DNA from: a virus
Taxonomy: Duplodnaviria; Caudoviricetes
DNA length: 64,000 bases
Direction: 5' to 3' (one strand)
Virus record (IMG/VR): IMGVR_UViG_3300025723_000013
Below, piece after piece: positions 49,689 to 61,681 of the stretch; within the stretch, counting starts at the first letter, position 1; each line of letters begins with the position of its first letter. Below the pieces are notes generated by a model. The model was not told where the DNA came from and ran no database searches. It worked only from the letters and a program-made list of their open reading frames with translations. Both the position numbers and the translations under genes were made by a program.

Positions 49689-49940
49689 CTATCGATGAAA
49701 TCGACCTTTGCTATGATCAACCATTTTGTGCACTTCAGGACCCTGACTCACAAAGTCCATGCCGGCAGATCTACCTTCATAAATCCTGCCATTCCACGTC
49801 ATGGGTAATTTAATAGTGTTATTGATAATAACCGTCATCTTATCTTGATGTTTAAAAAAGATAACTTCTGCATCAACAGCTTTTCCGTTCTTTTCCTGAG
49901 TAACTTTACAATTTTTGTCGTGCCGATAAGAATCCATCAT
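49689..49940 (-). CDS. Hypothetical protein
   Basis: ATG overlaps the queE stop. Confidence 0.55.
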   Translation of the reverse strand: MMDSYRHDKNCKVTQEKNGKAVDAEVIFFKHQDKMTVIINNTIKLPMTWNGRIYEGRSAGMDFVSQGPEVHKMVDHSKGRFHR

Positions 49941-50809
49941 GTTCCCCAAGCATTTCCAAATAGATCGCATTGCAGTCTTGGACTATAACGCCAGCCTTGA
50001 CTCATGGCATATTCTGCCACTTGACGATTATTCATTTCATATGTTTCCACAGTTCCGCCTACTGGCATCAAGTAGACTGGGCACAAAACATCAGCTTGGC
50101 GATAAGCTTCCACAGCACGATTAACATCGACCAAATCATCAGTATTGGCAACAACAAACTTAAGATACAGATTGCTACCACCATTAATAGATAAATCATA
50201 GTAAGATTTAACAACGTAAGGCTGAATCGCTTCCTCCCAATTCTCACCGCTAACCGTGAGTTTCGGGCTGCAGGACCAGGTGATGTGTAAATTGTTTCTT
50301 TGTTGTAGATAATCGGAAAAATCCTTGTGAAGCTTTTGAGTTGCATTTGTTTCAAATGTGAGATTTTTTAGATCTCGCATGCCTTCGTGTTCTAATAGGT
50401 CAATATAACTGCGTTGCCAGCCCAATAAAGGTTCGCCTCCGGTTATAACCAAGTGTATATCTTGACCGTTTGGTTGTGTCCACTGATTATTTGGTATCAA
50501 TTGTAATAAGCGTTCTACAATGGCGTCCGTATCATTTTTAATTGCAAATTTTTTAAATTCTGAATATACACTTGAATATGAATCACATCCGGTTTTAACT
50601 AGCGGAAGATCATCAAATGTTTTATATTGATCAATATTTTCAATTATTTTCTCAACTTCAGGATTTTTATCTTGGATAACTTTTGAAGAACGACCAAATG
50701 ATTTACATTTAAAATTGCAACCAAAGGTTCTAAAAAAAACACTAGGAATACCGGTCCATACTCCTTCACCTTGCAATGAATAAAATGTCTCTGTATAATG
50801 TATTTTCAT
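49937..50809 (-). CDS. queE: 7-carboxy-7-deazaguanine synthase QueE (radical SAM)
   Basis: ETFYSLQGEG..TGIPSVFFRTFGCN, TGCDS, LVITGGEPLL, FETN, SCSPKL, LMP, YSPRLQ; same cluster as folE and queD. Confidence 0.85.
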   Translation of the reverse strand: MKIHYTETFYSLQGEGVWTGIPSVFFRTFGCNFKCKSFGRSSKVIQDKNPEVEKIIENIDQYKTFDDLPLVKTGCDSYSSVYSEFKKFAIKNDTDAIVERLLQLIPNNQWTQPNGQDIHLVITGGEPLLGWQRSYIDLLEHEGMRDLKNLTFETNATQKLHKDFSDYLQQRNNLHITWSCSPKLTVSGENWEEAIQPYVVKSYYDLSINGGSNLYLKFVVANTDDLVDVNRAVEAYRQADVLCPVYLMPVGGTVETYEMNNRQVAEYAMSQGWRYSPRLQCDLFGNAWGT

Positions 50810-50813
50810 TTTT

Positions 50814-51587
50814 TTACCTTTTAACTGTTTTAATTCCGTATTCTTCAAAAGTTAGTCCGACAAAATCTGTAAATTCTGGATGAATTAATACAAATATTTT
50901 ACTAATTATAGCATTTCTATTAATTACAATCAACGTATTTTTTGAAAATGTCGGATATAATTTTAACAAATCTATACTTCCTTCGCAGTATCCTTTTGGA
51001 GTTTCATATGCGTATTTTGATGCTGCTAAACTCCTAATTCTTGATCCTTTTTTAACATTTCTTTTTTTCCGAGCAGCAAGTGTTTTTTTTAATTTTGTTT
51101 CGATAGAATCTTTTCTTCCCTTTGCAATTGCTGCATAAAGCACACCGTTATATTTTTCAAATAGTTTTTTAGGTATTCTTGCAACTTCTTCTGTGATTAA
51201 ATGTTTTGCTACTACTGTATTTTTACTATATTGGCTAACTATTTTTGAGTGTTTTTCTCTGATATAGGAGTACACTCTATTAGTAATTTTATAATTTCTT
51301 CCAGAATGAATAGAATAAATCATTTTATGCAATGCCTTTATCATTTTAGGATTATTGGTAGCTTTTGCTAATAAAAGATGTGCGATAAAATGATGTCTAG
51401 CACTTAATTTAATTAAATTAGTTCCTTCTGTTCCTCCAATAGATCGAGGAACAATATGATGCATTTCGGTATATCCGGAAAAATTAATAGTTTTACAGAT
51501 TTCTATGAATTTAATATATCGTTCAATTAAAAGTATTTTAGGATTATGAGAATATTTTAACAAATATATTTTAAGGTCGTTAGACAT
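50814..51587 (-). CDS. Free-standing HNH homing endonuclease-like protein
   Basis: YTEMHHIVPRSIGG...NLIKLSARHHFIAHLLL; GGAG SD; very AT-rich insert within the metabolic cluster. Confidence 0.8.
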   Translation of the reverse strand: MSNDLKIYLLKYSHNPKILLIERYIKFIEICKTINFSGYTEMHHIVPRSIGGTEGTNLIKLSARHHFIAHLLLAKATNNPKMIKALHKMIYSIHSGRNYKITNRVYSYIREKHSKIVSQYSKNTVVAKHLITEEVARIPKKLFEKYNGVLYAAIAKGRKDSIETKLKKTLAARKKRNVKKGSRIRSLAASKYAYETPKGYCEGSIDLLKLYPTFSKNTLIVINRNAIISKIFVLIHPEFTDFVGLTFEEYGIKTVKR

Positions 51588-51604
51588 TAGATTTTACTCC
51601 AGTA

Positions 51605-51671
51605 AAGTAGTAGAAGGCTATCTGTGTTACTGGTACAGAAGGATGATCAGTCCTTTCGCCTTCTACCACTT
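51605..51671 (-). promoter_or_regulatory. Three-way-junction RNA structure and adjacent late promoter upstream of the HNH gene
   Basis: 14-bp outer stem (one G-U on the - strand) enclosing AGGA/UCCU and UCUGU/ACAGA hairpins; ATAAATA at 51671-51677. Confidence 0.55.
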
Positions 51672-52088
51672 ATTTATTTTAACATTATCTAAATTTGGAT
51701 CATGATAATTTCCTTTTCCTGGGATAACGTGCCTTACTCCACCTCTAGGATTGTCTACATCGCCAAATTTCCTTGGAATAAGATGCACATGCGGCCACAT
51801 CACAGTTTGTCCTGCAGCCTCGCCATAATTAATTCCTATATTGAATCCATCCCATACTTGATTTGTTACTTGATCTTTTCCATAACGAACAGCATCTTCA
51901 AATGCGTCATTTAGAATGTAGATACTATTATATCTTGGAACAAAAAGCAAATGTCCTTCACTTACCGGAAATTTATCTCGATATATGATCACATGAAAAT
52001 CTTCACGGAAAACATCTTTCCAAGGAACGTTTGCATCCTCAATCACTGCTGGTCCATCAAAAATCCTATCTACATCGATATTTGTCAT
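51663..52088 (-). CDS. HIT family nucleotide hydrolase
   Basis: FPVSEGHLLFVP, GFNIGINYGEAAGQTVMWPHVHLIPR. Confidence 0.85.
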   Translation of the reverse strand: MTNIDVDRIFDGPAVIEDANVPWKDVFREDFHVIIYRDKFPVSEGHLLFVPRYNSIYILNDAFEDAVRYGKDQVTNQVWDGFNIGINYGEAAGQTVMWPHVHLIPRKFGDVDNPRGGVRHVIPGKGNYHDPNLDNVKINKW

Positions 52089-52089
52089 G

Positions 52090-52620
52090 CTATTTCCACC
52101 ATACTTCGTAAGGAAATTCAATCCAAACATTGTCGTTGGATTTGTTGATCTCCATTCCCACAAAATCCATACTTACTTTACATTTGCTATCAAGATTATC
52201 TACTATCACTGCAAATTTAACATTGTTATTCCAAATATTATCCCATCGCTCAACAGAGCATATTCCCGTCTGCCAGTCGTTTATAATCCAATTAAACGTA
52301 GCACCACTATCGTTAATGTCATCCACGATCAGCATGTTTTTTGGAGCATCCATGTCGTAGCCATATGCGTCCTCGGCCATGGCACCATGACTGACACAGA
52401 TTCCTCCGTCGCGCAAACTGACTTCTAGAGGCTGCATAGGGATATCAAAATAATGACTGATCATGGTAGCGGCCATTAGTCCTCCGCGGCTGATTCCTAC
52501 CACGTAGTCAGGACGCCAACTGCTGTTTACAATTTGCCGGCATAGATCCGATACCAAATTTTCATATTGATCGTAAGTTAATCTTAATTTTTTAGTATTA
52601 GCCGACGACATTTTAGCCAT
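52090..52620 (-). CDS. Type I phosphoribosyltransferase (purine PRT-like)
   Basis: VVGISRGGL and PRPP-binding LIVDDINDSGAT. Confidence 0.85.
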   Translation of the reverse strand: MAKMSSANTKKLRLTYDQYENLVSDLCRQIVNSSWRPDYVVGISRGGLMAATMISHYFDIPMQPLEVSLRDGGICVSHGAMAEDAYGYDMDAPKNMLIVDDINDSGATFNWIINDWQTGICSVERWDNIWNNNVKFAVIVDNLDSKCKVSMDFVGMEINKSNDNVWIEFPYEVWWK

Positions 52621-53305
52621 GTCCTTTCATGGAAAGACAAATATCATAAAATTCTTTTTTCAATGCAGGATCACTGTTAAACGCACCCAACATGATAGCA
52701 GTAGTCATGTCGCTTTCATGTTCTCGAACTCCTCGCTGTGTCATGCAGTGATGTTCTGCCTTTACTACCACTGCAATATGCTCTGTCTTGGCATACTCTC
52801 GCAACGCATCTGCGATTTGTGTAGTCATTTCTTCTTGTATCTGCGGACGTTCACAGATATGATGCACCAGTCTATTGAATTTACTGAGACCAATAACATC
52901 ATCTTGTGGAACAATGCCAACCCAACATTTTCCAACGATATTTTGAAAATGATGCGCACATGTTGAACGGATGCTGATAGGACCAGTGGTATATAAACTT
53001 TTGTAACCCATGTTGGGAAAAGCAGTGATTTTAGGAACTGCTCGATAACGTCCGCTAAAAGTTTCCTTGATAAACATTTTGGCCACACGACGCGCAGTGT
53101 CTTTGGTATTATGATCATTGTCAATGTCGATCACCAAAGATTTTAACACGCCCTGCATCTTTTCTGCCACTTCTTTTACTAATTGTTCAAGTTCTTCGTC
53201 GTCCTTGATAAACTCAGAAATGTTATCATTGCTGTGATAACGAGCGCCAGAGAGTTCAACTCGATTTCTAATAATATCGCTTATGTTTTGCATTTTTTCC
53301 TCCAT
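52613..53305 (-). CDS. folE: GTP cyclohydrolase I
   Basis: TARRVAKMF, STCAHHFQNIVG, GLSKFNR, QIQEEMT, AEHHCMTQRG. Confidence 0.95.
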   Translation of the reverse strand: MEEKMQNISDIIRNRVELSGARYHSNDNISEFIKDDEELEQLVKEVAEKMQGVLKSLVIDIDNDHNTKDTARRVAKMFIKETFSGRYRAVPKITAFPNMGYKSLYTTGPISIRSTCAHHFQNIVGKCWVGIVPQDDVIGLSKFNRLVHHICERPQIQEEMTTQIADALREYAKTEHIAVVVKAEHHCMTQRGVREHESDMTTAIMLGAFNSDPALKKEFYDICLSMKGHG

Positions 53306-53310
53306 TGCCT

Positions 53311-53352
53311 ATAATAGCAAAGATATTTAGGCAAAGTCAAATCTGCCTAAAT
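53311..53352 (-). promoter_or_regulatory. Sigma70-like promoter for folE overlapped by a 9-bp inverted repeat
   Basis: TTGACT-18 nt-TATTAT; ATTTAGGCA (53325-53333) / TGCCTAAAT (53344-53352). Confidence 0.45.
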
Positions 53353-53360
53353 AAATTGTG

Positions 53361-54548
53361 TTAAAATTTGTGTTCTCTATTATGTTTACGATAATCGGTA
53401 GACATGCGTAACCACTGTTCGCCGTTGCCTTCAATGATATCAACAATTCGATCAATGGTTTTATCAGTCCAATCGCTAATCTTGCCCATACCGGTGTGAG
53501 GATTTTGCAGCAGGATTTTTAATTTATCAATTGCGTCATCAATGGACCAGGGCGTGTACAAACGTGTATAATCATTGGAAAAAGTTTCTGGAAAACTGCG
53601 ATAAGCAGGATACAGCACATTGCATCCTAGGGTATCTGCTTCAGATACAGTATTAGATACCCAATCTTGCAACGCACAATTAAATAGAACACGAGTATCA
53701 TTGAGCAAATCATAGTAAGAATTCTTTTCTAAGTCCTCGTAAACAGTGAGCAAGTTTCGCTGTTGCAATTCGCGTGTGCGAGACATATAACTTTCATTAT
53801 TAGATCTAAGTTTAGAACCAGAAAAAACTGCAAACTCTACACTAGGCAAACTCATTGAATGCCATTTTTCAATCAAATCCATATAGAAGTCTGGCTGTTT
53901 TTCTTGATCCCAACGGGCAGCAAATCCAACTCGCATGGTTCGCTCATGGAAAGGTTTGATTTGATTGTTGACTCTTTCAAGCACCTCTGTTTTACCAAAA
54001 GCCAGTCCTGAAATGTTATAGATTGGAGCCGTCCATCCTGCAACCTTCATGTGCATGACCATTTCTTCGTTGGATGCAAGGACCGCTCCTTTGGAAATGC
54101 TAACAATTTCGTTAACCATGCGCTCGTAATCGCCCATCCATTTCTGCAATCCCCAGACATGAACAAAATCATCAGGATCAATTGATTGCGCAAGACAACG
54201 TACAAAAATACGAGGACGCATATTTTCAGGAATTTGGTTGATAATATATCCCAAACTTTCAAAGCCGGGTTGAAACATATCTTCAAAGTAAATAACATCG
54301 TCGCTGTTAACTTCACCCTGCTGCATCAGTCGTACAAGATTCATCATTTGACTCATACTAAAATAAGATCGACCGTGTGCATCAAGCACTTGCCCGACAA
54401 CGATTTTTTGACTGCTATCCAGGGTAAGACCCGGAACATATGACACAGTAAGTCCGCGTCGGTTAAAAACTCTGGTGTTCCATTCACTTAATTGTAAAGT
54501 ATAACGGGCTTGATAGGATTCAAGCCCCATATAATATAATTGTCTCAT
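53361..54548 (-). CDS. GT-B fold glycosyltransferase within the 7-deazaguanine cluster
   Basis: RVGFAARWDQEKQP, YDLLNDTRVLFNCALQDWVSNTVSEADTLGCNVLYP..RSFPE resemble the GT4-type donor-binding domain. Confidence 0.7.
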   Translation of the reverse strand: MRQLYYMGLESYQARYTLQLSEWNTRVFNRRGLTVSYVPGLTLDSSQKIVVGQVLDAHGRSYFSMSQMMNLVRLMQQGEVNSDDVIYFEDMFQPGFESLGYIINQIPENMRPRIFVRCLAQSIDPDDFVHVWGLQKWMGDYERMVNEIVSISKGAVLASNEEMVMHMKVAGWTAPIYNISGLAFGKTEVLERVNNQIKPFHERTMRVGFAARWDQEKQPDFYMDLIEKWHSMSLPSVEFAVFSGSKLRSNNESYMSRTRELQQRNLLTVYEDLEKNSYYDLLNDTRVLFNCALQDWVSNTVSEADTLGCNVLYPAYRSFPETFSNDYTRLYTPWSIDDAIDKLKILLQNPHTGMGKISDWTDKTIDRIVDIIEGNGEQWLRMSTDYRKHNREHKF

Positions 54549-54550
54549 TG

Positions 54551-54832
54551 TTAATTCTTCTTGATATAAGATTTACGATCTTGATTATTGGAAAACTTTG
54601 CATCTGAACGATCCTTATTGTGAGATCGATCTCGATAATCTCTATTTGATTTTCCAGACTGAGATTTTTGAAAGTAACGGTATTCCTTGGATCTATATAA
54701 ATCCGAAGGATTGAATGGAAGTAGATTAAATCTACAGTGATCATGCCATGCTTCGAGATCTTCGAAGATCCTGGTTACTTCCGGTTTCATACGCGAAGAT
54801 TTATAGTTATTGTTGTAATTGCTGTTTGACAT
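54551..54832 (-). CDS. Hypothetical small protein
   Basis: AAGGAG SD; basic C-terminus. Confidence 0.65.
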   Translation of the reverse strand: MSNSNYNNNYKSSRMKPEVTRIFEDLEAWHDHCRFNLLPFNPSDLYRSKEYRYFQKSQSGKSNRDYRDRSHNKDRSDAKFSNNQDRKSYIKKN

Positions 54833-54855
54833 TTTTACTTCCTTATTTTTAAGGT

Positions 54856-55227
54856 TTATAGATGTGTTGGAAATTGAATGAAGCAGCCATTCTCGCCATC
54901 TTCACTCACGGAAATCCAAACCTCACGGATTGGATATCGTGCGTTAATTGTGTGATAAAGATCACGTGCAATCATTTCGCAGGATTTATAGTTAAGCTCA
55001 AGTGTGCCATTGGAGTAGCAGCTCTCAAGCCAACGTTTAAACTGGATAAATTCTAAGTCTCGATCATCATGATACACCTCAATCCATACCTTGAAATGAA
55101 AGATATGACGATGTGGATAACTTAGAAAACTAACATCCTCTAATTCCGGGGAGGTAGCCGCGCCGGGATATCGATGTATACCTTCTTTTTGGAAGGTTAC
55201 CCAAATCATTGATTTTTCTTTATTCAT
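54856..55227 (-). CDS. queD: QueD-like 6-carboxytetrahydropterin synthase (T-fold)
   Basis: HRHIFH metal His cluster, SCE, and C-terminal VSEDGENG. Confidence 0.7.
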   Translation of the reverse strand: MNKEKSMIWVTFQKEGIHRYPGAATSPELEDVSFLSYPHRHIFHFKVWIEVYHDDRDLEFIQFKRWLESCYSNGTLELNYKSCEMIARDLYHTINARYPIREVWISVSEDGENGCFIQFPTHL

Positions 55228-55732
55228 TGACTGTTTCTCGCAAAGTGTCTGAAATATAAAAACTTAATTCTTCGTAGTTAAAAGCGGTATCAAAATTATT
55301 TAAAATTAAATTTTTAAGATACGGGTATGCAATTTTTTCTCCAGGAATATTGAGTGTACAACATTTGCTGTTCGGCGATGAATACTTTTCTGGCAATTTA
55401 ATTTTTTTAATTTTCAGTTTGTATTCTGAAATAATAGCATTTACTATGACAACTATATGACTTTCGGATATATTATATAATTCTGTGGCACTACTTCCTA
55501 ATAAAAATTTTGCCGATCTTGTGTATGCAAAATTTTTAAAAACTCTTTCAAGCATTGTTATATCAGTAAATTCGCCAAAGTAAAGATGACTCAAATAAAA
55601 ATATTTTGATGTATATTTTTGCCTGGCTCTTACCACCGAGTGAGGAGTTATTCCTACTCCTATTTTATTCCACGACGTGTCCCCTGCCATATCCGGATGG
55701 ATATAGAAAAAGGGACTTACATTCTTTTTCAT
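55220..55732 (-). CDS. Hypothetical protein, possibly a degenerate GIY-YIG/T5orf172-like nuclease
   Basis: FFYI...NKIGVG...R..Q...LER..K...TELY pattern; AT-rich. Confidence 0.4.
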   Translation of the reverse strand: MKKNVSPFFYIHPDMAGDTSWNKIGVGITPHSVVRARQKYTSKYFYLSHLYFGEFTDITMLERVFKNFAYTRSAKFLLGSSATELYNISESHIVVIVNAIISEYKLKIKKIKLPEKYSSPNSKCCTLNIPGEKIAYPYLKNLILNNFDTAFNYEELSFYISDTLRETVNE

Positions 55733-56253
55733 TTAATTACCTCATCGTTTTTATATTGAAACCAATTGGTGAATGTATCTCTGCTCATCAAACTCTGCAG
55801 ACTGTGTGTCCAAACGCCGGGATTTGTAGAATCAAAATCTTTATCATCAATTTTGATCATGGTATTATAATTCCACAGCTTGAGATAAGGTATTGGAATA
55901 CGAATTTGTGGAATAAAATTATTATAGTTGTTTAACCCGCCGTCGTTGAATTCTTCTACAGCCGACAGTGGGATATCTAAAGTGCACCAAAAATCTTTTT
56001 CAAGAAAGGCAGAAATCATTTTCTCCCATGCACGCCATTCGTCGGCATTGTTATAGGCAGGATTAAAACTGTGATTGGCACCAAAGAAAATATGCTTGCA
56101 GCCATTGAATAGTGTTTTTTCATATATGGATTCAAATGAATGTAACCCTACTACAAACAATGTTTTCATTCCGTAGGCAGGAGTTTTTTCAACTTCTATT
56201 CCTACAAAAAACATCACGTCATCGGATTCGCCGGATTCATAATATCTTTTCAT
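55729..56253 (-). CDS. Hypothetical protein associated with the deazaguanine cluster
   Basis: 174 aa; FFVGIEVEKTPAYGMKTLFVVG, HIFFGANHSF, KIDDKDF..TNPGVW. Confidence 0.7.
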   Translation of the reverse strand: MKRYYESGESDDVMFFVGIEVEKTPAYGMKTLFVVGLHSFESIYEKTLFNGCKHIFFGANHSFNPAYNNADEWRAWEKMISAFLEKDFWCTLDIPLSAVEEFNDGGLNNYNNFIPQIRIPIPYLKLWNYNTMIKIDDKDFDSTNPGVWTHSLQSLMSRDTFTNWFQYKNDEVIK

Positions 56254-56258
56254 TATTT

Positions 56259-56287
56259 AATATACTATCTTTAATATTAATTGTCAA
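56259..56287 (-). promoter_or_regulatory. Sigma70-type promoter positioned for a leaderless mRNA
   Basis: TTGACA-17 nt-TATATT, then 5 nt to ATG 56253; no SD. Confidence 0.55.
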
Positions 56288-57833
56288 CACTATTTTCCAA
56301 GGCTCTCAAGGCGTCATCCTCGGGATTATTTAAATCTATTTCTTCAACCTTGGTAACTTCGTCGATTTGAAATAAATTGCTAAAAGCATTATCACTTTTT
56401 CCGTCTGTAGTGTTTCTTGCACCTGCTAGATTAATTAAAAATGCCTTAGCAGTGGGATGTTCCAGCATTTCCATAGCCTCACTTAAATTTTTAGTTGCAA
56501 ATAATTCTTCTACAAAACGATCAAAATAAAGAATGTTTCTTGGAACCCATTCGCTATATTGATCACTGGAAAGATCTTTATCCTTTAATTTTTTCCAATG
56601 ACGCCAATCGGGACGGAATCTAGCGCGTTCAATATCCATCAATTGATTGGCACGTTGGACCGCAGCTATATGACAATAAACGTTGTGTCCCATCATTAGT
56701 GCATAGGAAAAACTATCCCATGACGTTTTTCCTTCTTTGCCAATTTTATTCAGCATCCCTGGGGCGTAATGACAAATATCTCCAATAGTTAATCTGCGTC
56801 CAAATTCGCTTTCAAAAGGAAAAGGAATATCAGATTTTGACAATGCTTTGTTATCAGGAGCTTTATCCATTACTACTCCAAATTTCTTGGCAGTATGGCG
56901 TGCGTTTGTATAAACCAGTCCGTGTGCGGTAGCTACAAAGGGACTGGCACAGTCAAAACTAATTGTGAGATTTTCATTGACAGTCTGTCTAATCTGTCTT
57001 TGTATAGAAGTTAAAAAACAAGCCCAGTCTAGCTGTGCTGTACCTAGGCAGTGTATCCAATTTTTATCTTGTAAAAATCCTTCTTCTCTCATGATCATCA
57101 AGCGTTTGAGAGTAATGTCCATTTTGCTCATATTAACACCGCCAAATGCCCACCCTTCGGCAGCACGATCTCCCCAAACTTTTGGATCACTGAATTCTTT
57201 TACTCCTTCGTACCAAGTTTGTGCACTGATCCAGTCACTGCCTTGTAGTACATTGAGCCATTTTGTTTTACCCGATGAATTTTTTAAAAAATATTCATTG
57301 TTGTATCTTGTTTTTTCCAAGCAATCCTGTGGACTTGTTAGCCCGGTTCTGGCAGTATTGTTTTTATCACATGCCCAAATAGGTACATCCAACATCATGG
57401 ACCAATCGGCGGTAAGCTCTAACCATGCGATAATATCATCTCTTACTTTATTGGCAGCAGGACCCTGGAAATTTAACCAATCAAATTTTAGAATTCCTTT
57501 TCCAATTTGATATCCGCCAGAGTCTCCTAGGATCATGGTGTTATTACGATCTCGTTTCTGTATCATGGATTCCTGGACTAGGCTTTTTTTGAGATCCAAT
57601 TGAGCATGCCCTGCAGAATATAATGCATACTTGTAGGTAAAATAGCCTTCTTCTGGATTGAGAAAATTCATGCCTTCAATTCCTCGATCAAAATCCTTAG
57701 GAATACGATCTAGAGGCACAAATTCCTCCAAACGCTGCTTGGCAATATATGTGCTATAAAAACTACTAATTGCTGGAAGATATACAGAATAGTCTTTTTG
57801 TAGTGGTGTTAAATCTACTGGTGGTCTTTTCAT
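56277..57833 (-). CDS. tRNA-guanine transglycosylase (TGT)/DpdA-like guanine exchange enzyme
   Basis: ILGDSGGYQ, MLDVP, NVLQG, GWAFGG, WIHCLG and FDCASP follow the order of TGT-barrel motifs; same cluster as folE, queD and queE. Confidence 0.75.
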   Translation of the reverse strand: MKRPPVDLTPLQKDYSVYLPAISSFYSTYIAKQRLEEFVPLDRIPKDFDRGIEGMNFLNPEEGYFTYKYALYSAGHAQLDLKKSLVQESMIQKRDRNNTMILGDSGGYQIGKGILKFDWLNFQGPAANKVRDDIIAWLELTADWSMMLDVPIWACDKNNTARTGLTSPQDCLEKTRYNNEYFLKNSSGKTKWLNVLQGSDWISAQTWYEGVKEFSDPKVWGDRAAEGWAFGGVNMSKMDITLKRLMIMREEGFLQDKNWIHCLGTAQLDWACFLTSIQRQIRQTVNENLTISFDCASPFVATAHGLVYTNARHTAKKFGVVMDKAPDNKALSKSDIPFPFESEFGRRLTIGDICHYAPGMLNKIGKEGKTSWDSFSYALMMGHNVYCHIAAVQRANQLMDIERARFRPDWRHWKKLKDKDLSSDQYSEWVPRNILYFDRFVEELFATKNLSEAMEMLEHPTAKAFLINLAGARNTTDGKSDNAFSNLFQIDEVTKVEEIDLNNPEDDALRALENSVDN

Positions 57834-57835
57834 TT

Positions 57836-58570
57836 TTACGCCTGTGCTGGAATAATATATTTGTAAGTTGCTAAACCGCTATCCATTGTGATCTGCAAAG
57901 CCCCGGCATCGCTGATGCTTAATTTACAGTTATTGACATCGGCAATTTTTAACACGCTTAGGATGGCAGCAATTGGCCATGTGTGAGAACGTGACAGCTT
58001 TCCTGTAACGTTGTTTGCAAATACAAACTCACCGCCGTGTGTGCTATGATCGCCAAAAATAAATTTTAAGTTATTTCCTTCAATTTTAGGAAGAAATGTT
58101 GTATGCTCGCTATTAGCACCGGCCTGAAAGCTAAACCGCTGCACGGATTGCAAGGTAGGAGTTACTTCAACATCCCAATTAGCTCCGCGGAATTTTACTG
58201 TTTTTAATTTTTCATTAATAATTTCGGTATTCATAAATCGATAGTCATTTTTAAAATCGCCATTTTTATTTTCAAAATGAATGCCAACAGGCACTTTTAC
58301 TCCATTACGATTGTCTGTAATAATATCAAGTTTGGCATCTTCTTTATATTCATCGCCGTCAAGCAGATATTTAAGTTTGTTAAGTTGAGGCATACCAAAC
58401 ACACCAATCATTTCCGGATATGGATTGTTGGTTTCTCCATACATGATAAGAGATCTGTCGTCGCTCATGGCATCGATCTTGGTAGATGTTTTATCTCCAG
58501 TAATTTTTACAATGTTTAAAAAACCTAAACTATGAGTATGACTCACGATATCTTGTAGAATTTCTTTCAT
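57836..58570 (-). CDS. gp45: DNA polymerase sliding clamp (gp45-like)
   Basis: 244 aa, directly downstream of PolB; size and C-terminal G.LQITMDSGLATYKYIIPA are consistent with a clamp. Confidence 0.6.
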   Translation of the reverse strand: MKEILQDIVSHTHSLGFLNIVKITGDKTSTKIDAMSDDRSLIMYGETNNPYPEMIGVFGMPQLNKLKYLLDGDEYKEDAKLDIITDNRNGVKVPVGIHFENKNGDFKNDYRFMNTEIINEKLKTVKFRGANWDVEVTPTLQSVQRFSFQAGANSEHTTFLPKIEGNNLKFIFGDHSTHGGEFVFANNVTGKLSRSHTWPIAAILSVLKIADVNNCKLSISDAGALQITMDSGLATYKYIIPAQA

Positions 58571-58624: not shown

Positions 58625-61327
58625 TTATTCAAAGCTAAACAAACTGCTAAACGTATTTTCTTGAGTGGTAGATTCTAGATCCCAATCCAGTACACCGATC
58701 AAATTGTCTAGTTTATTATTAATGATAGCCGATTCCATGGCAGAATGATCAAATGGCAGTTCTTGAAACCACTTGGGTAATCTCAATTCGTCAACCGGAT
58801 ACGCAACGCTGGTAAAGCCAATGGGATTATCTTTAAGTTTGCAAACAATCACCTTCATTCCGTCCACGATTTGCATTGAATACTTGTCGCCATTCATGCG
58901 TCTTAGCGTATTCCAATTGATAGATGCTCTAACATGTCCGGGCATGTTTGCTTTACCTGCTTTTTCTTCCTTGATTTGATATTCAGCAATGTTGTTGGCA
59001 CGTTTAGGACTACCTTTTTCCCAACCCGGGCGTGCCTTGAACTCTGTGCGAAATTCTGAAATCATGTCTAAGATTTCTTTTTCTCCAGAACCGTTCAATA
59101 CTTTATTTAGAATTTCACTAAGGAAGTTTTGCATAAATTCTGGAGTGTCACTTCTTTTAAGATCCAACCCCATGGCTTTGATCTTGCCAGGTTTTCCATC
59201 AATGTCTTGACGTTTTCCGTCTTTGTCATAATAAAGCACAGCATATCTTTTCTTGGTAATGAATAGCCCTTTAATAGCAACGATTTCTCTGCCTGCCCGT
59301 ATAACATCTCCTCGCTTTTTGGGTGTATGAAAGGCATCCAACATCATTTGCGGAAATGTTGAATTAACTTCTTCAGCCACTGTATTATACAGTTGTATCA
59401 CCGTGTCCTTATCCCAAGGCAACAGTCCTTTTTGTATTTCATTTTTTAAGGTAGTGTAGGCAGTAAAATAGGCACTGTCAGTGTCGCCGTAAATAATAGC
59501 CTTGCCAACATGATCATATTCACCGGTGATTATTTCGTTGATCTTGGCCGCCATGTGTTTTGCGATTCTACGACCCGTGAGCGTGGTAGATTGTCCGATC
59601 CTGTTATCAAAAAATCTGCATCCAGCATTGAGAATAGCTCCGTATAGGCTGTTGAGATTGATCTTTTTCACTAGCTGACGTTTATCCCAATATTCCTCTT
59701 GGATTTTATTTCCAGCATCAATGGCTTCTTTGAGCTTTTTCTGCATTTCTTTACGTTCTTTATACCAACGCGCAAGCAAGCCTGGAATAATTCCTTCTTT
59801 TTCAAACGTAAAAATAGTGCCGTTAGCACTTAGTACCCAGGGGTTATTGCTTTCAAAAATCAATTCGTAAATTTGTGCGCCACTCAGCATGTCATGCCGC
59901 CCATCTTCCCAGTCGATGATGATTTCTTTTACTCGATCCTTGGACATGACCAGTTCATATTCATTGCTGCCGAATTTTCCTTCCCAAGCCAGAGCAAATT
60001 TACCACCATTTTTTGCCATCTTGGTTTCAATTTCTAACTTGGTATACTGTTGTCGCAATTGGCCTATAATGGTTTCTGGGCCCATGTTTAATGCGCGAAT
60101 TACGGAAGGATATAGACTGTTGATGTCCATGGATCCAATCCAATCATGTAATCCTTTTTTAGGATAGGCTACATATGCGCCCGCAGCTTTATCATCTGTT
60201 GAACTATTTTCTTCGTCATCATCGATAGATTCTTTGTCTTTTTTTGCTCGACTTGGGACGATTAATCCCAAGTGATGTGCTTCGTTGATAATTGCCTGTT
60301 CGGTCACTGCCACGGCGCCCATGGTAGTTTTGAGTAGCACAGTGTTTTCGTGAGCAATGCTGTTGGCCAAATCAATAAATTTTAATTTTTTATCTAGTTT
60401 ATCTAGCAGTGCGCAGTCTTGCCTATTATATTCAATAAATTTGCGAAAATCATTATTATAAAGTTGATCAAGTGTACCTTCATAGACCGTTTTAGTTTCA
60501 CCTAATTCATAGTCTGCAATGGCATCGAGACGATAACTGTGACGTTCTTCGTATGTGTACTTTCTATAAAGCTCTAGGCTGTCCAGATGTACCCGGCCTA
60601 CCAAATCATATGTCATGGCTGCCTTGCCGTATTTTTCATATTCTCGCTTTTTAGGCATTTGATCCCATAGACAAAATCTACGTGTATCTTCTTTACTAAG
60701 TACCTTGATTACTCGATTAACGGTATAAGGTATATCAAACCCTTCGCTGTTCCATCCGCTGAGTACATCAGCATCGTCGATGAGATTTAAAAACGTGTCC
60801 AACATTTCATATTCTGTTTCAAACAGCATGGTGTTAGGAAATTCTTTTACCTGCTCTTCGGCCTCTGCCATGGTTAATGTTTTAGGCGGTACAGCAAGAC
60901 ATACCAGAGTATCCAACCATTGTAAATGCACAGCGATCGCGGTGATTGGCATAAATGCATCGCTTGGACTAGCATATCCACGTTCTGGATCAAAATCTAC
61001 CTCAATATCAAAGAACGCTACGTTAAGTTTTGGAGCATCTTTTCCTAGATAGTTTTCTTCAAGACATCGAAAAATGGGATTCATATCGCTTTCAAAAAGT
61101 TTGCGATTTCCATGTATGCGTTGTTCCTTGGTATGCTCTTTCCAACTCTTAGATACAACCTTGACCAATGACTGACCAAAGATACTTGTGTATTTGCCTT
61201 TGGGATCTGGATAATAGAAAAGATATCTTGCTGGATATGTTTGATATATTCGACCTTTGATAGGATCACGTTCAACGACATTGACAATATCGCTGTCACG
61301 ATCCCATAAGGAATCTACGTAACTCAT
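58625..61327 (-). CDS. gp43: Family B DNA polymerase (gp43-like)
   Basis: ExoI FDIE, ExoII GWNSEGFD, ExoIII YNRQD; polymerase motifs DINSLYPS, KINLNSLYG and YGDTDS. Confidence 0.97.
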   Translation of the reverse strand: MSYVDSLWDRDSDIVNVVERDPIKGRIYQTYPARYLFYYPDPKGKYTSIFGQSLVKVVSKSWKEHTKEQRIHGNRKLFESDMNPIFRCLEENYLGKDAPKLNVAFFDIEVDFDPERGYASPSDAFMPITAIAVHLQWLDTLVCLAVPPKTLTMAEAEEQVKEFPNTMLFETEYEMLDTFLNLIDDADVLSGWNSEGFDIPYTVNRVIKVLSKEDTRRFCLWDQMPKKREYEKYGKAAMTYDLVGRVHLDSLELYRKYTYEERHSYRLDAIADYELGETKTVYEGTLDQLYNNDFRKFIEYNRQDCALLDKLDKKLKFIDLANSIAHENTVLLKTTMGAVAVTEQAIINEAHHLGLIVPSRAKKDKESIDDDEENSSTDDKAAGAYVAYPKKGLHDWIGSMDINSLYPSVIRALNMGPETIIGQLRQQYTKLEIETKMAKNGGKFALAWEGKFGSNEYELVMSKDRVKEIIIDWEDGRHDMLSGAQIYELIFESNNPWVLSANGTIFTFEKEGIIPGLLARWYKERKEMQKKLKEAIDAGNKIQEEYWDKRQLVKKINLNSLYGAILNAGCRFFDNRIGQSTTLTGRRIAKHMAAKINEIITGEYDHVGKAIIYGDTDSAYFTAYTTLKNEIQKGLLPWDKDTVIQLYNTVAEEVNSTFPQMMLDAFHTPKKRGDVIRAGREIVAIKGLFITKKRYAVLYYDKDGKRQDIDGKPGKIKAMGLDLKRSDTPEFMQNFLSEILNKVLNGSGEKEILDMISEFRTEFKARPGWEKGSPKRANNIAEYQIKEEKAGKANMPGHVRASINWNTLRRMNGDKYSMQIVDGMKVIVCKLKDNPIGFTSVAYPVDELRLPKWFQELPFDHSAMESAIINNKLDNLIGVLDWDLESTTQENTFSSLFSFE

Positions 61328-61339
61328 TTTATTCTCCCT

Positions 61340-61409
61340 GTGATTTATGGCTCACGTACCTTGATGCGATCATTTGTGGCTGATCAAACCTTTCTCTTGG
61401 TATATTTAT
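61340..61409 (-). promoter_or_regulatory. PolB leader: ATAAATA promoter-like motif and twin hairpins with GCCAYAAA loops next to the SD
   Basis: GAUCA-GCCACAAA-UGAUC (61368-61385) and GUGA-GCCAUAAA-UCAC (61340-61355), followed by A-GGGAG; TATTTAT at 61403-61409. Confidence 0.6.
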
Positions 61410-61411
61410 TT

Positions 61412-61681
61412 TTATTCGTCGCGTCGTGCAGCATGCCCGGTAATATCAAGGATAGTTTCCAATGTATCAAAACTATTCCAAACTTTATCCCAGTTGCCTT
61501 TTAATGCGATGTTGATGGCTTTTTTGATATCTGCGGCAGAAATATCTAGTTCTTCTGCGATAGCTTTGATCGTATCGTTAAGTCCTTCGTTGAGAACTTG
61601 AATTTCTTGTTTAACTGTCACACCTTCGGATACGATCTGTTTAAGTTTTGCCTTTTCCGGTTCGCCAAATACTTTACTCAT
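61412..61681 (-). CDS. Small dsDNA-binding protein, T4 DsbA/GapR-like
   Basis: 89 aa; E.....LNEGLNDTIKAIAEELDISAADIKKAINIA pattern; AAGGAG SD. Confidence 0.55.
   Translation of the reverse strand: MSKVFGEPEKAKLKQIVSEGVTVKQEIQVLNEGLNDTIKAIAEELDISAADIKKAINIALKGNWDKVWNSFDTLETILDITGHAARRDE

Follow-up and report, generated by a model that had tools for sequence, protein, structure and literature searches.

What is the folded RNA that precedes the DNA polymerase gene of this phage, and does it govern that gene in the way the gene 43 operator of T4 does? To our knowledge, T4-type phages offer the only known case of a DNA polymerase that controls its own translation, and there the control relies on one simple hairpin. 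An earlier note on the 64,000-nt stretch of DNA analysed here (hereafter the window) had pointed to two stem-loops with different stems and nearly identical 8-nt loops in the leader of polB, the second ending 1 nt before a GGGAG Shine-Dalgarno sequence (SD), and had proposed a duplicated autogenous translational operator with a new loop sequence. In the minus-strand readout, both stem-loops (UGAUCA/UGAUCG with loop GCCACAAA, GUGA/UCAC with loop GCCAUAAA) and the 1-nt distance from the second of them to the SD were base-exact.

The phage belongs to an uncultivated jumbo-phage clade, for which IMG/VR holds hundreds of relatives with PolB sequences 69–85% identical. The nearest named phages by PolB are Sinorhizobium phage Phosso, CBB, GAP32 and PBECO4, with 44–50% identity. 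When PolB was compared with solved structures, RB69 gp43 was the best match (E 1e-56 over residues 45–845), and T4 gp43 was also matched. The intergenic leader between polB and the preceding 89-aa gene measures 84 nt, and the twin element occupies the positions 12–66 nt upstream of the polB AUG (Table 1). Its two units are separated by the spacer CAUCAA (minus strand), and the outermost pair of the unit 1 hairpin is U-G. The 89-aa gene itself is present in 187 of the 192 related loci having enough upstream DNA.

Table 1. Features of the polB locus in the window, listed in the direction of polB transcription
Feature	Position	Strand	Remarks
sigma-70-like promoter	61734-61706		upstream of the 89-aa gene
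upstream 89-aa gene	61412..61681	-	phrog_12534 / phrog_639 'transcriptional regulator'; same strand as polB
stop codon UAA of the 89-aa gene	61414-61412	-
promoter-like box AAUAAAUA	61403..61410	-	core TAAATA; overlaps the end of the upstream 89-aa gene
unit 1, S1 5' strand GGU	61388..61390	-	pairs with loop nt 1-3; then 1-nt linker U61387
unit 1 hairpin	61367..61386	-	UGAUCA (61386-61381), loop GCCACAAA (61380-61373), UGAUCG (61372-61367)
unit 2, S1 5' strand GGU	61358..61360	-	then linker AC
unit 2 hairpin	61340..61355	-	GUGA (61355-61352), loop GCCAUAAA (61351-61344), UCAC (61343-61340)
Shine-Dalgarno GGGAG	61334..61338	-	1 nt (A) past unit 2; then AAUAAA, AUG (61327)
polB, 900-aa family B DNA polymerase, T4/RB69 type	58625..61327	-	PF00136 + PF03104; phrog_262 at 6e-193
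244-aa gene after polB (clamp homologue)	57836-58570	-	phrog_12062, no Pfam match; 38% identity to the annotated sliding clamp of Phosso
tightly packed same-strand cluster	49937-57833	-	after polB and the clamp gene

By thermodynamics alone, the leader region does not stand out. The fold of a 111-nt segment gave z = -0.82, and its minimum free energy (MFE) structure omits hairpin 2. The isolated hairpins are weak (-4.6 kcal/mol for the first and -2.4 kcal/mol for the second), the mean hairpin energies being -4.3 and -4.5 kcal/mol, respectively. Two hairpins of the type GCCNNAAR were observed, both in the polB leader, against a mean of 1.5 in the shuffled 88-kb contig of the phage. The octamer GCCAYAAA occurs four times in the window, below chance expectation, and only the two copies in the polB leader sit in hairpins. 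The MFE structure offers a long-range stem of its own, which encloses the SD and joins UACGUGA with UUACGUA of codons 2–4; it was rejected, being 60% paired in 61 leaders, equal to the shuffle mean, and showing no covariation.

Comparison across related phages was decisive, and argues that the twin element is not a product of chance. Both units were present in all 135 distinct polB leaders parsed from related IMG/VR phages; of about 12 further loci that went unparsed, some have a stem of 3 bp or are closed by a U-U pair, and others are non-polB loci. Among the 135 leaders, unit 1 occurs with 12 distinct core stems and unit 2 with 15. In 61 aligned leaders, the core pairs are 98–100% paired, and overall pairing amounts to 86%, against 65% in shuffled and 23–41% in slid controls. 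Covariation across polB leaders, which the earlier note had named as a check, is strong in both stems: 177 doubly changed cells were counted in the same alignment versus 66 in shuffles, with 0 of 500 shuffles as high. Loss of loop conservation, which would have counted against the operator, was not seen either, the loop consensus being kept in the 135 leaders. Since the core pairs include 21 G-U and no A-C combinations, the fold belongs to the sense-strand RNA; 14 G-U were found at one pair of unit 2.

The structure extends beyond two hairpins. A triplet GGY is located 1–3 nt 5' of each hairpin and is complementary to loop nucleotides 1–3 (GCC). For unit 1, the combinations of upstream triplet and loop nucleotides were GGU/GCC (110), GGC/GCC (16) and AGU/GCU (7 of 7), with one U-U exception; for unit 2, they were GGU/GCC (127), GGU/ACC (7) and GGC/GCC (2). 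A GCU loop is accompanied by AGU in seven out of seven distinct leaders, and no true GCU loop was found with GGU; likewise, GGC appears only with G at loop position 1, and ACC loops only with GGU. The third pair of this helix (S1) is seen as C-G, U-G and U-A, apart from the U-U exception. The S1 helix is 96% paired in alignment A2, where its first pair (4-16) is GC in 52 rows and AU in 4, a change from G-C to A-U in 4 of 59 rows. Leaders with AGU/GCU fall in at least two separate places on the PolB tree. Given AGU upstream of every GCU loop, each unit is best described as a mini H-type pseudoknot with an A-rich third loop, in which the hairpin loop pairs with a flanking strand and the pairing is backed by covariation. 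It should be noted that S1 comprises only 3 bp, and that its covariation, as read from the alignments, consists of one pair (G-C to A-U) plus wobble-compatible changes. The layout common to the units is S1 (GGY:GCC, 3 bp), L1 of 1–3 nt, a freely covarying S2 of 4–7 bp, no L2, and L3 with the sequence NNAAD. An L1 of 1–3 nt together with an L3 of 5 nt is sterically plausible by pseudoknot geometry. Of the two hairpins originally described, the stems and the 8-nt loops therefore stand, and their reading as plain hairpins gives way to that of small H-type pseudoknots (GGY:GCC).

The loops of the two units are conserved to different extents. Over the 135 leaders, the consensus of unit 1 is G-C-C-A-Y-A-A-(A/G/U), with C2, A4, A6 and A7 invariant, and that of unit 2 is G-C-C-N-N-A-A-(A/G/U), with C2, C3, A6 and A7 invariant. 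Unit 1 thus keeps A4 in 100% and a pyrimidine at position 5 in 96% of cases, whereas positions 4–5 vary in unit 2. Position 8 is never C in the 135 leaders, so that a competing G1-C8 pair is avoided. The invariant A6 and A7 are what would be expected if L3 made contacts to the minor groove of S1. Mimicry of an anticodon loop (CAU) or of a CCA end by the loop was also considered and dropped, because the C of CAU is engaged in S1 pairing and positions 4–5 are free to vary in unit 2.

Two models of the motif, one for the twin unit (R1) and one for the single unit (R2), were searched against the phage's 88-kb contig and against relatives of 353 kb (99% complete), 328 kb (92% complete), 327 kb and 230 kb, and matched the polB leader only. 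None of these records shows the multiple target sites expected of a RegA-like regulon operator; each holds one twin site. The next-best R2 match (E 0.036) is a lone hairpin, GCCG-GCCAUAAA-CGGC, at G001:C1:144702-144727 (L267:153-178), which has no upstream GGY and is probably a chance match. Outside the clade, the leaders of Phosso, CBB, PBECO4, XbC2 and T4 are without the motif, and no named phage was matched by the leader region in blastn. A cmscan search of positions 61200–61500 against Rfam 15, at E values up to 10, returned only five chance-level matches to unrelated families, and no covariance-model match was obtained with Rfam 15 families including preQ1-I/II/III, SAM-II, SAM/SAH and guanidine-II/III. 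The literature searched contained no description of a twin-pseudoknot polB leader. The element is an uncatalogued RNA family, represented by 135 distinct sequences and a single site per genome. Where the locus is rearranged (L114, L166, L168 and the sister clades), it stays with the SD that comes first on the polB message: in L114 and L166 the motif lies 122 nt further upstream, before a 41-codon ORF, and in L168, where polB is split, the twin motif stays ahead of the first polB piece. L114 and L166 had been candidates for exceptions, and were discarded as such, the motif being present ahead of the inserted ORF. The uniqueness in near-complete genomes and the persistence through a small-ORF insertion and a split polB are new.

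Divergent forms of the element were found in sister clades. In sister group A (L276 and L297; PolB 61% identical), AGU goes with GCU in both units. Sister group B (PolB 62–65% identical) has a unit-2-like pseudoknot only, for example GGC-N3-CCG-GCCAUAAA-CGG followed directly by AG, in which the GG of the SD (GGAG) forms the end of S2. The first hairpin of group B is a different one, covarying and with the loop ACGUYAC or CGUAA; it may be a second, distinct operator module. In L313, L314, L324–L326, L336 and L346, at about 1420–1470, hairpin stems GCUC/GAGC, GCCC/GGGC, GUUC/GAAC and GCUCC/GGAGC are observed, preceded by AGUC. An origin of the two units by duplication, as the earlier note had it, is plausible; it is unproven because group B combines a unit-2-like element with a different first hairpin. 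The sister clades also carry an extra gene of roughly 1 kb between polB and the clamp gene. Other sister phages, with PolB 60–63% identical, have no leader element, and their polB is coupled to an upstream ORF. In L281–L312 and L298–L301, the polB ATG overlaps the end of an upstream ORF or comes immediately after it; this ORF ends in ...ID(S/T)(V/I)GL(I/V)RM..., and the same coding motif is seen just 5' of the TAAATA box in many main-clade leaders. With this C-terminal coding motif shared at the junction, an insertion or a loss of the leader seems to have taken place there.

The T4 late-promoter consensus is TATAAATA, and the box at the 5' edge of the leader, AAUAAAUA, matches it in seven of eight positions. 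Its TAAAT is conserved to at least 90% in 61 leaders, and TAAATA occurs at most 110 nt upstream of 27 of the 74 crude gene calls in the phage's own contig. More broadly, an (A/T)ATAAATA box is found 20–100 nt 5' of many genes of the contig, and is conserved before polB in relatives. From this sequence pattern, the TAAATA box may act as a promoter; a late-type promoter before a DNA polymerase gene would be odd, if the box is one. The intergenic region upstream of polB contains neither a sigma-70-like promoter nor a terminator. As no terminator intervenes, read-through into polB from the sigma-70-like promoter upstream of the 89-aa gene is likely.

How close, then, is the element to the operator of T4? 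The real T4 leader has AGCCU-AAUAACUC-GGGCU, then 7 nt, then AAGGA, and model R2 does not match the gene 43 operator. The operators of T4, RB69 and RB49 gene 43 resemble the present element in their location in the 5' leader of a T4/RB69-type family B polymerase gene, where they reach the ribosome-binding site (RBS), and in having a hairpin with an 8-nt loop and one site per genome. In contrast, the T4 operator is a single hairpin with a 5-bp stem and no pseudoknot, followed by 7 nt of single strand before the SD, whereas here there are two pseudoknot units, the second abutting the SD. There is no sequence or model similarity, and the phages described here form a different, uncultivated jumbo-phage clade. 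The gene 43 loops carry UAAC (T4, RB69) or UAAA (RB49) versus AUAA(A) here; with T4, only the loop length (8 nt) and an AUAA tetramer are shared. T4 gp43 has been described as binding the hairpin upstream of the start codon along with a stretch that overlaps the RBS; for binding, UAAC or UAAA in the loop is important, as are the 3' AC/AA loop bases, the T4 operator is reported to be without a pseudoknot, and some T4-related polymerases do not autoregulate (PMC3014915). Lacking a pseudoknot, having another loop and giving no R2 match, the T4 operator is related to the element by analogy, not homology.

Other small RNA elements offer partial parallels. The T4 gene 32 pseudoknot, which serves autogenous control by gp32, is located well upstream, where it nucleates the cooperative coating of an AU-rich region that is unstructured. 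Guanidine-II riboswitches (two hairpins with identical loops) and glycine switches consist of tandem like units, and the preQ1-I and SAM/SAH riboswitches are built as small H-type pseudoknots that have an A-rich L3 and sequester the adjacent SD. The present element differs from the leaders of gene 32 and of the ribosomal protein genes for S15 and L20 in gene, sequence and geometry, both of its units being compact and the second touching the SD. It has in common with them a small leader pseudoknot, which in those systems is the specific recognition element for autogenous repression (PMC3014915; for L20, PMC1888825). With preQ1-I and SAM/SAH (PMC7367207), it shares the order S1, short L1, S2 and A-rich L3, a size of about 25–30 nt per unit and the position at the SD, and with guanidine-II the tandem arrangement of like units. 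Unlike these riboswitches, it gives no covariance-model match and has no L2 and no conserved ligand-pairing C; compared with preQ1-I, moreover, the conserved and the variable helix are swapped.

The placement of unit 2 suggests how the element might work. In the 135 leaders, the start of an SD-like tetramer falls between -2 and +4 nt relative to the end of the unit-2 3' arm, and the SD is thus often partly within the extended unit-2 stem; the AUG mostly follows 9–13 nt beyond this arm. With such spacing, a folded unit 2 sits inside the 30S footprint. We propose that the 5' leader of the polB mRNA would fold into two tandem mini H-type pseudoknots and that unit 2, once stabilised, would keep the 30S subunit off the SD; the element would then be a gene-specific translational operator at the first cistron of the polB transcript, with polB as the regulated cistron. 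Because the isolated hairpins are marginally stable, occupancy is probably set by a bound stabilising factor. One site per genome, always at polB, implies a gene-specific regulator, for which the product of polB is the simplest candidate. The most likely bound factor would thus be free PolB, repressing its own synthesis as in T4, RB69 and RB49 gene 43, and unit 1 may serve as a second or nucleating site. Sequence comparison bears out the two helices, the S1 pairing, the sense-strand RNA, the uniqueness to polB and the adjacency to the SD, whereas translational repression, and PolB as its effector, we infer by analogy with T4. On that analogy, a translational operator through which PolB represses its own synthesis is our preferred reading, held tentatively and somewhat short of even confidence; more generally, the twin pseudoknots probably set the amount of polymerase made, as T4 does with a simpler hairpin. 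The operator reading of the earlier note is upheld as far as a conserved, structured and gene-specific RNA in a T4/RB69-type polB leader, with unit 2 at the SD and one site per genome, and stays at the level of analogy for the repressor. Against PolB, the polymerase is monomeric, without an obvious need for two sites, and sister phages with 60–63% identical PolB manage without the element.

Not every reading of the leader involves a binding partner. The invariants of unit 2 (GG, CC, A6 and A7) can be accounted for by S1 and presumed A-minor contacts, that is, by the fold alone, so that conservation does not strictly require a trans factor. The element could therefore be a purely structural one that constitutively dampens or tunes polB translation, or that, as a barrier at the 5' end, shields the transcript from 5'-end-dependent decay. 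It always abuts the SD, and unit 1 would be within about 10–15 nt of the 5' end if the TAAATA box is a promoter. However, A4 (100%) and the position-5 pyrimidine (96%) of unit 1 are not required by the fold and are not kept in unit 2, hairpins of about -4.4 kcal/mol are poor constitutive blocks, and polB can also be read from the upstream promoter with no terminator between, so that the element would not always be 5'-terminal. We regard such an effector-less role as somewhat unlikely. If a protein does bind, it need not be PolB: a phage RNA-binding repressor, the clamp, the 89-aa protein, the DpdA-like enzyme encoded downstream or host ribosomal protein S1 are conceivable. Two near-identical sites would suit a binder that is dimeric or cooperative, most relatives have polB flanked by the 89-aa gene and the clamp homologue, and E. 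coli L20 provides a precedent, being a repressor that recognises two places on its mRNA, of which one is a pseudoknot (PMC1888825). Against this, a general repressor should have several targets and one site per genome is seen, polB is the only constant neighbour across the clades, and no RNA-binding domain was detected in the neighbours; an operator for another protein is accordingly unlikely. Hardly credible is an action at the DNA level, as a protein operator, replication origin or single-stranded DNA hairpin. A transcription-factor operator could take the form of inverted repeats placed between a promoter-like box and a gene, but here the arms vary freely and the spacer is conserved, which is the opposite of a DNA operator, and the 21:0 ratio of G-U to A-C in the core pairs, the S1 pairing and the fixed place relative to the SD all fit mRNA.

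The genes downstream of polB raise the question of a small-molecule ligand. The clamp homologue follows polB in 86 of the 86 relatives having enough downstream DNA, and the cluster behind it encodes a DpdA-like protein of 518 aa (no Pfam match; TGT-fold), FolE (PF01227, 2e-46), a phosphoribosyltransferase-domain protein and a QueE-like radical-SAM protein. The DpdA-like gene downstream of polB is conserved in relatives. With polB at the head of this same-strand cluster, the leader might be a new tandem riboswitch class, in which each mini-pseudoknot would bind a small molecule (a 7-deazaguanine precursor such as preQ0, or a nucleotide) and a ligand-folded unit 2 would hide the SD. The architecture shared with preQ1-I and SAM/SAH, with its small H-type pseudoknot and A-rich L3 on the SD side, and the tandem like units recalling the guanidine-II and glycine switches would agree with this. 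Yet no Rfam match was obtained even at E up to 10, L2 is 0 nt long, neither an unpaired C nor L1 is conserved, and just two unpaired bases of unit 2 are invariant. Furthermore, the DpdA-like and FolE genes do not track the motif. Both are present in all five near-complete relatives tested, including a Phosso-like 480-kb genome; G002, G003 and G005 carry the motif, and G006 and G007 lack it. L298–L301 have DpdA after the clamp, yet no leader. No phyletic link between the motif and the 7-deazaguanine genes, of the kind expected of a preQ1-type riboswitch, was found. Finally, polB and the clamp gene are uncoupled and 54 nt apart, so a switch acting on the polB SD would leave the distal genes unaffected. 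A riboswitch is consequently quite unlikely; were it real, polymerase synthesis would be tied to small-molecule supply, with replication starting only once modified bases or their precursors are available, and a bound ligand would define a new riboswitch class controlling replication. This negative 7-deazaguanine test is new, as are the divergent sister-clade forms with covariation in S1 of unit 2 and the direct comparison with the real T4 operator.

Should PolB bind, as in the operator that we favour, polymerase autoregulation would be a recurrent, independently evolved solution, and the leader would provide a compact two-site RNA for studying RNA recognition by family B polymerases. At about 65 nt, the element is testable and is a candidate for a new Rfam family. 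A large uncultivated clade with genomes of about 330–350 kb carries, at the place of the T4 operator, an unrelated and much better supported RNA.

The rearranged loci have features of their own. In L168 (665-4269), the first 122 codons of polB form an ORF at 665-1057 and the remainder begins at about 1930, the interruption containing a 243-aa ORF (1104-1835) with a weak, sub-threshold HNH match; no DpdA-like gene is present within 3.8 kb downstream. This split polB resembles a homing-endonuclease insertion, an intron or a polymerase in two pieces. The 41-codon ORF of L114 (8939-9064, minus strand) and L166 (2651-2776, minus strand) is Cys-rich, with the pattern CxxC...C...C, and has no Pfam match. 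Its TGA overlaps the polB ATG (ATGA), and polB is therefore probably translationally coupled to it.
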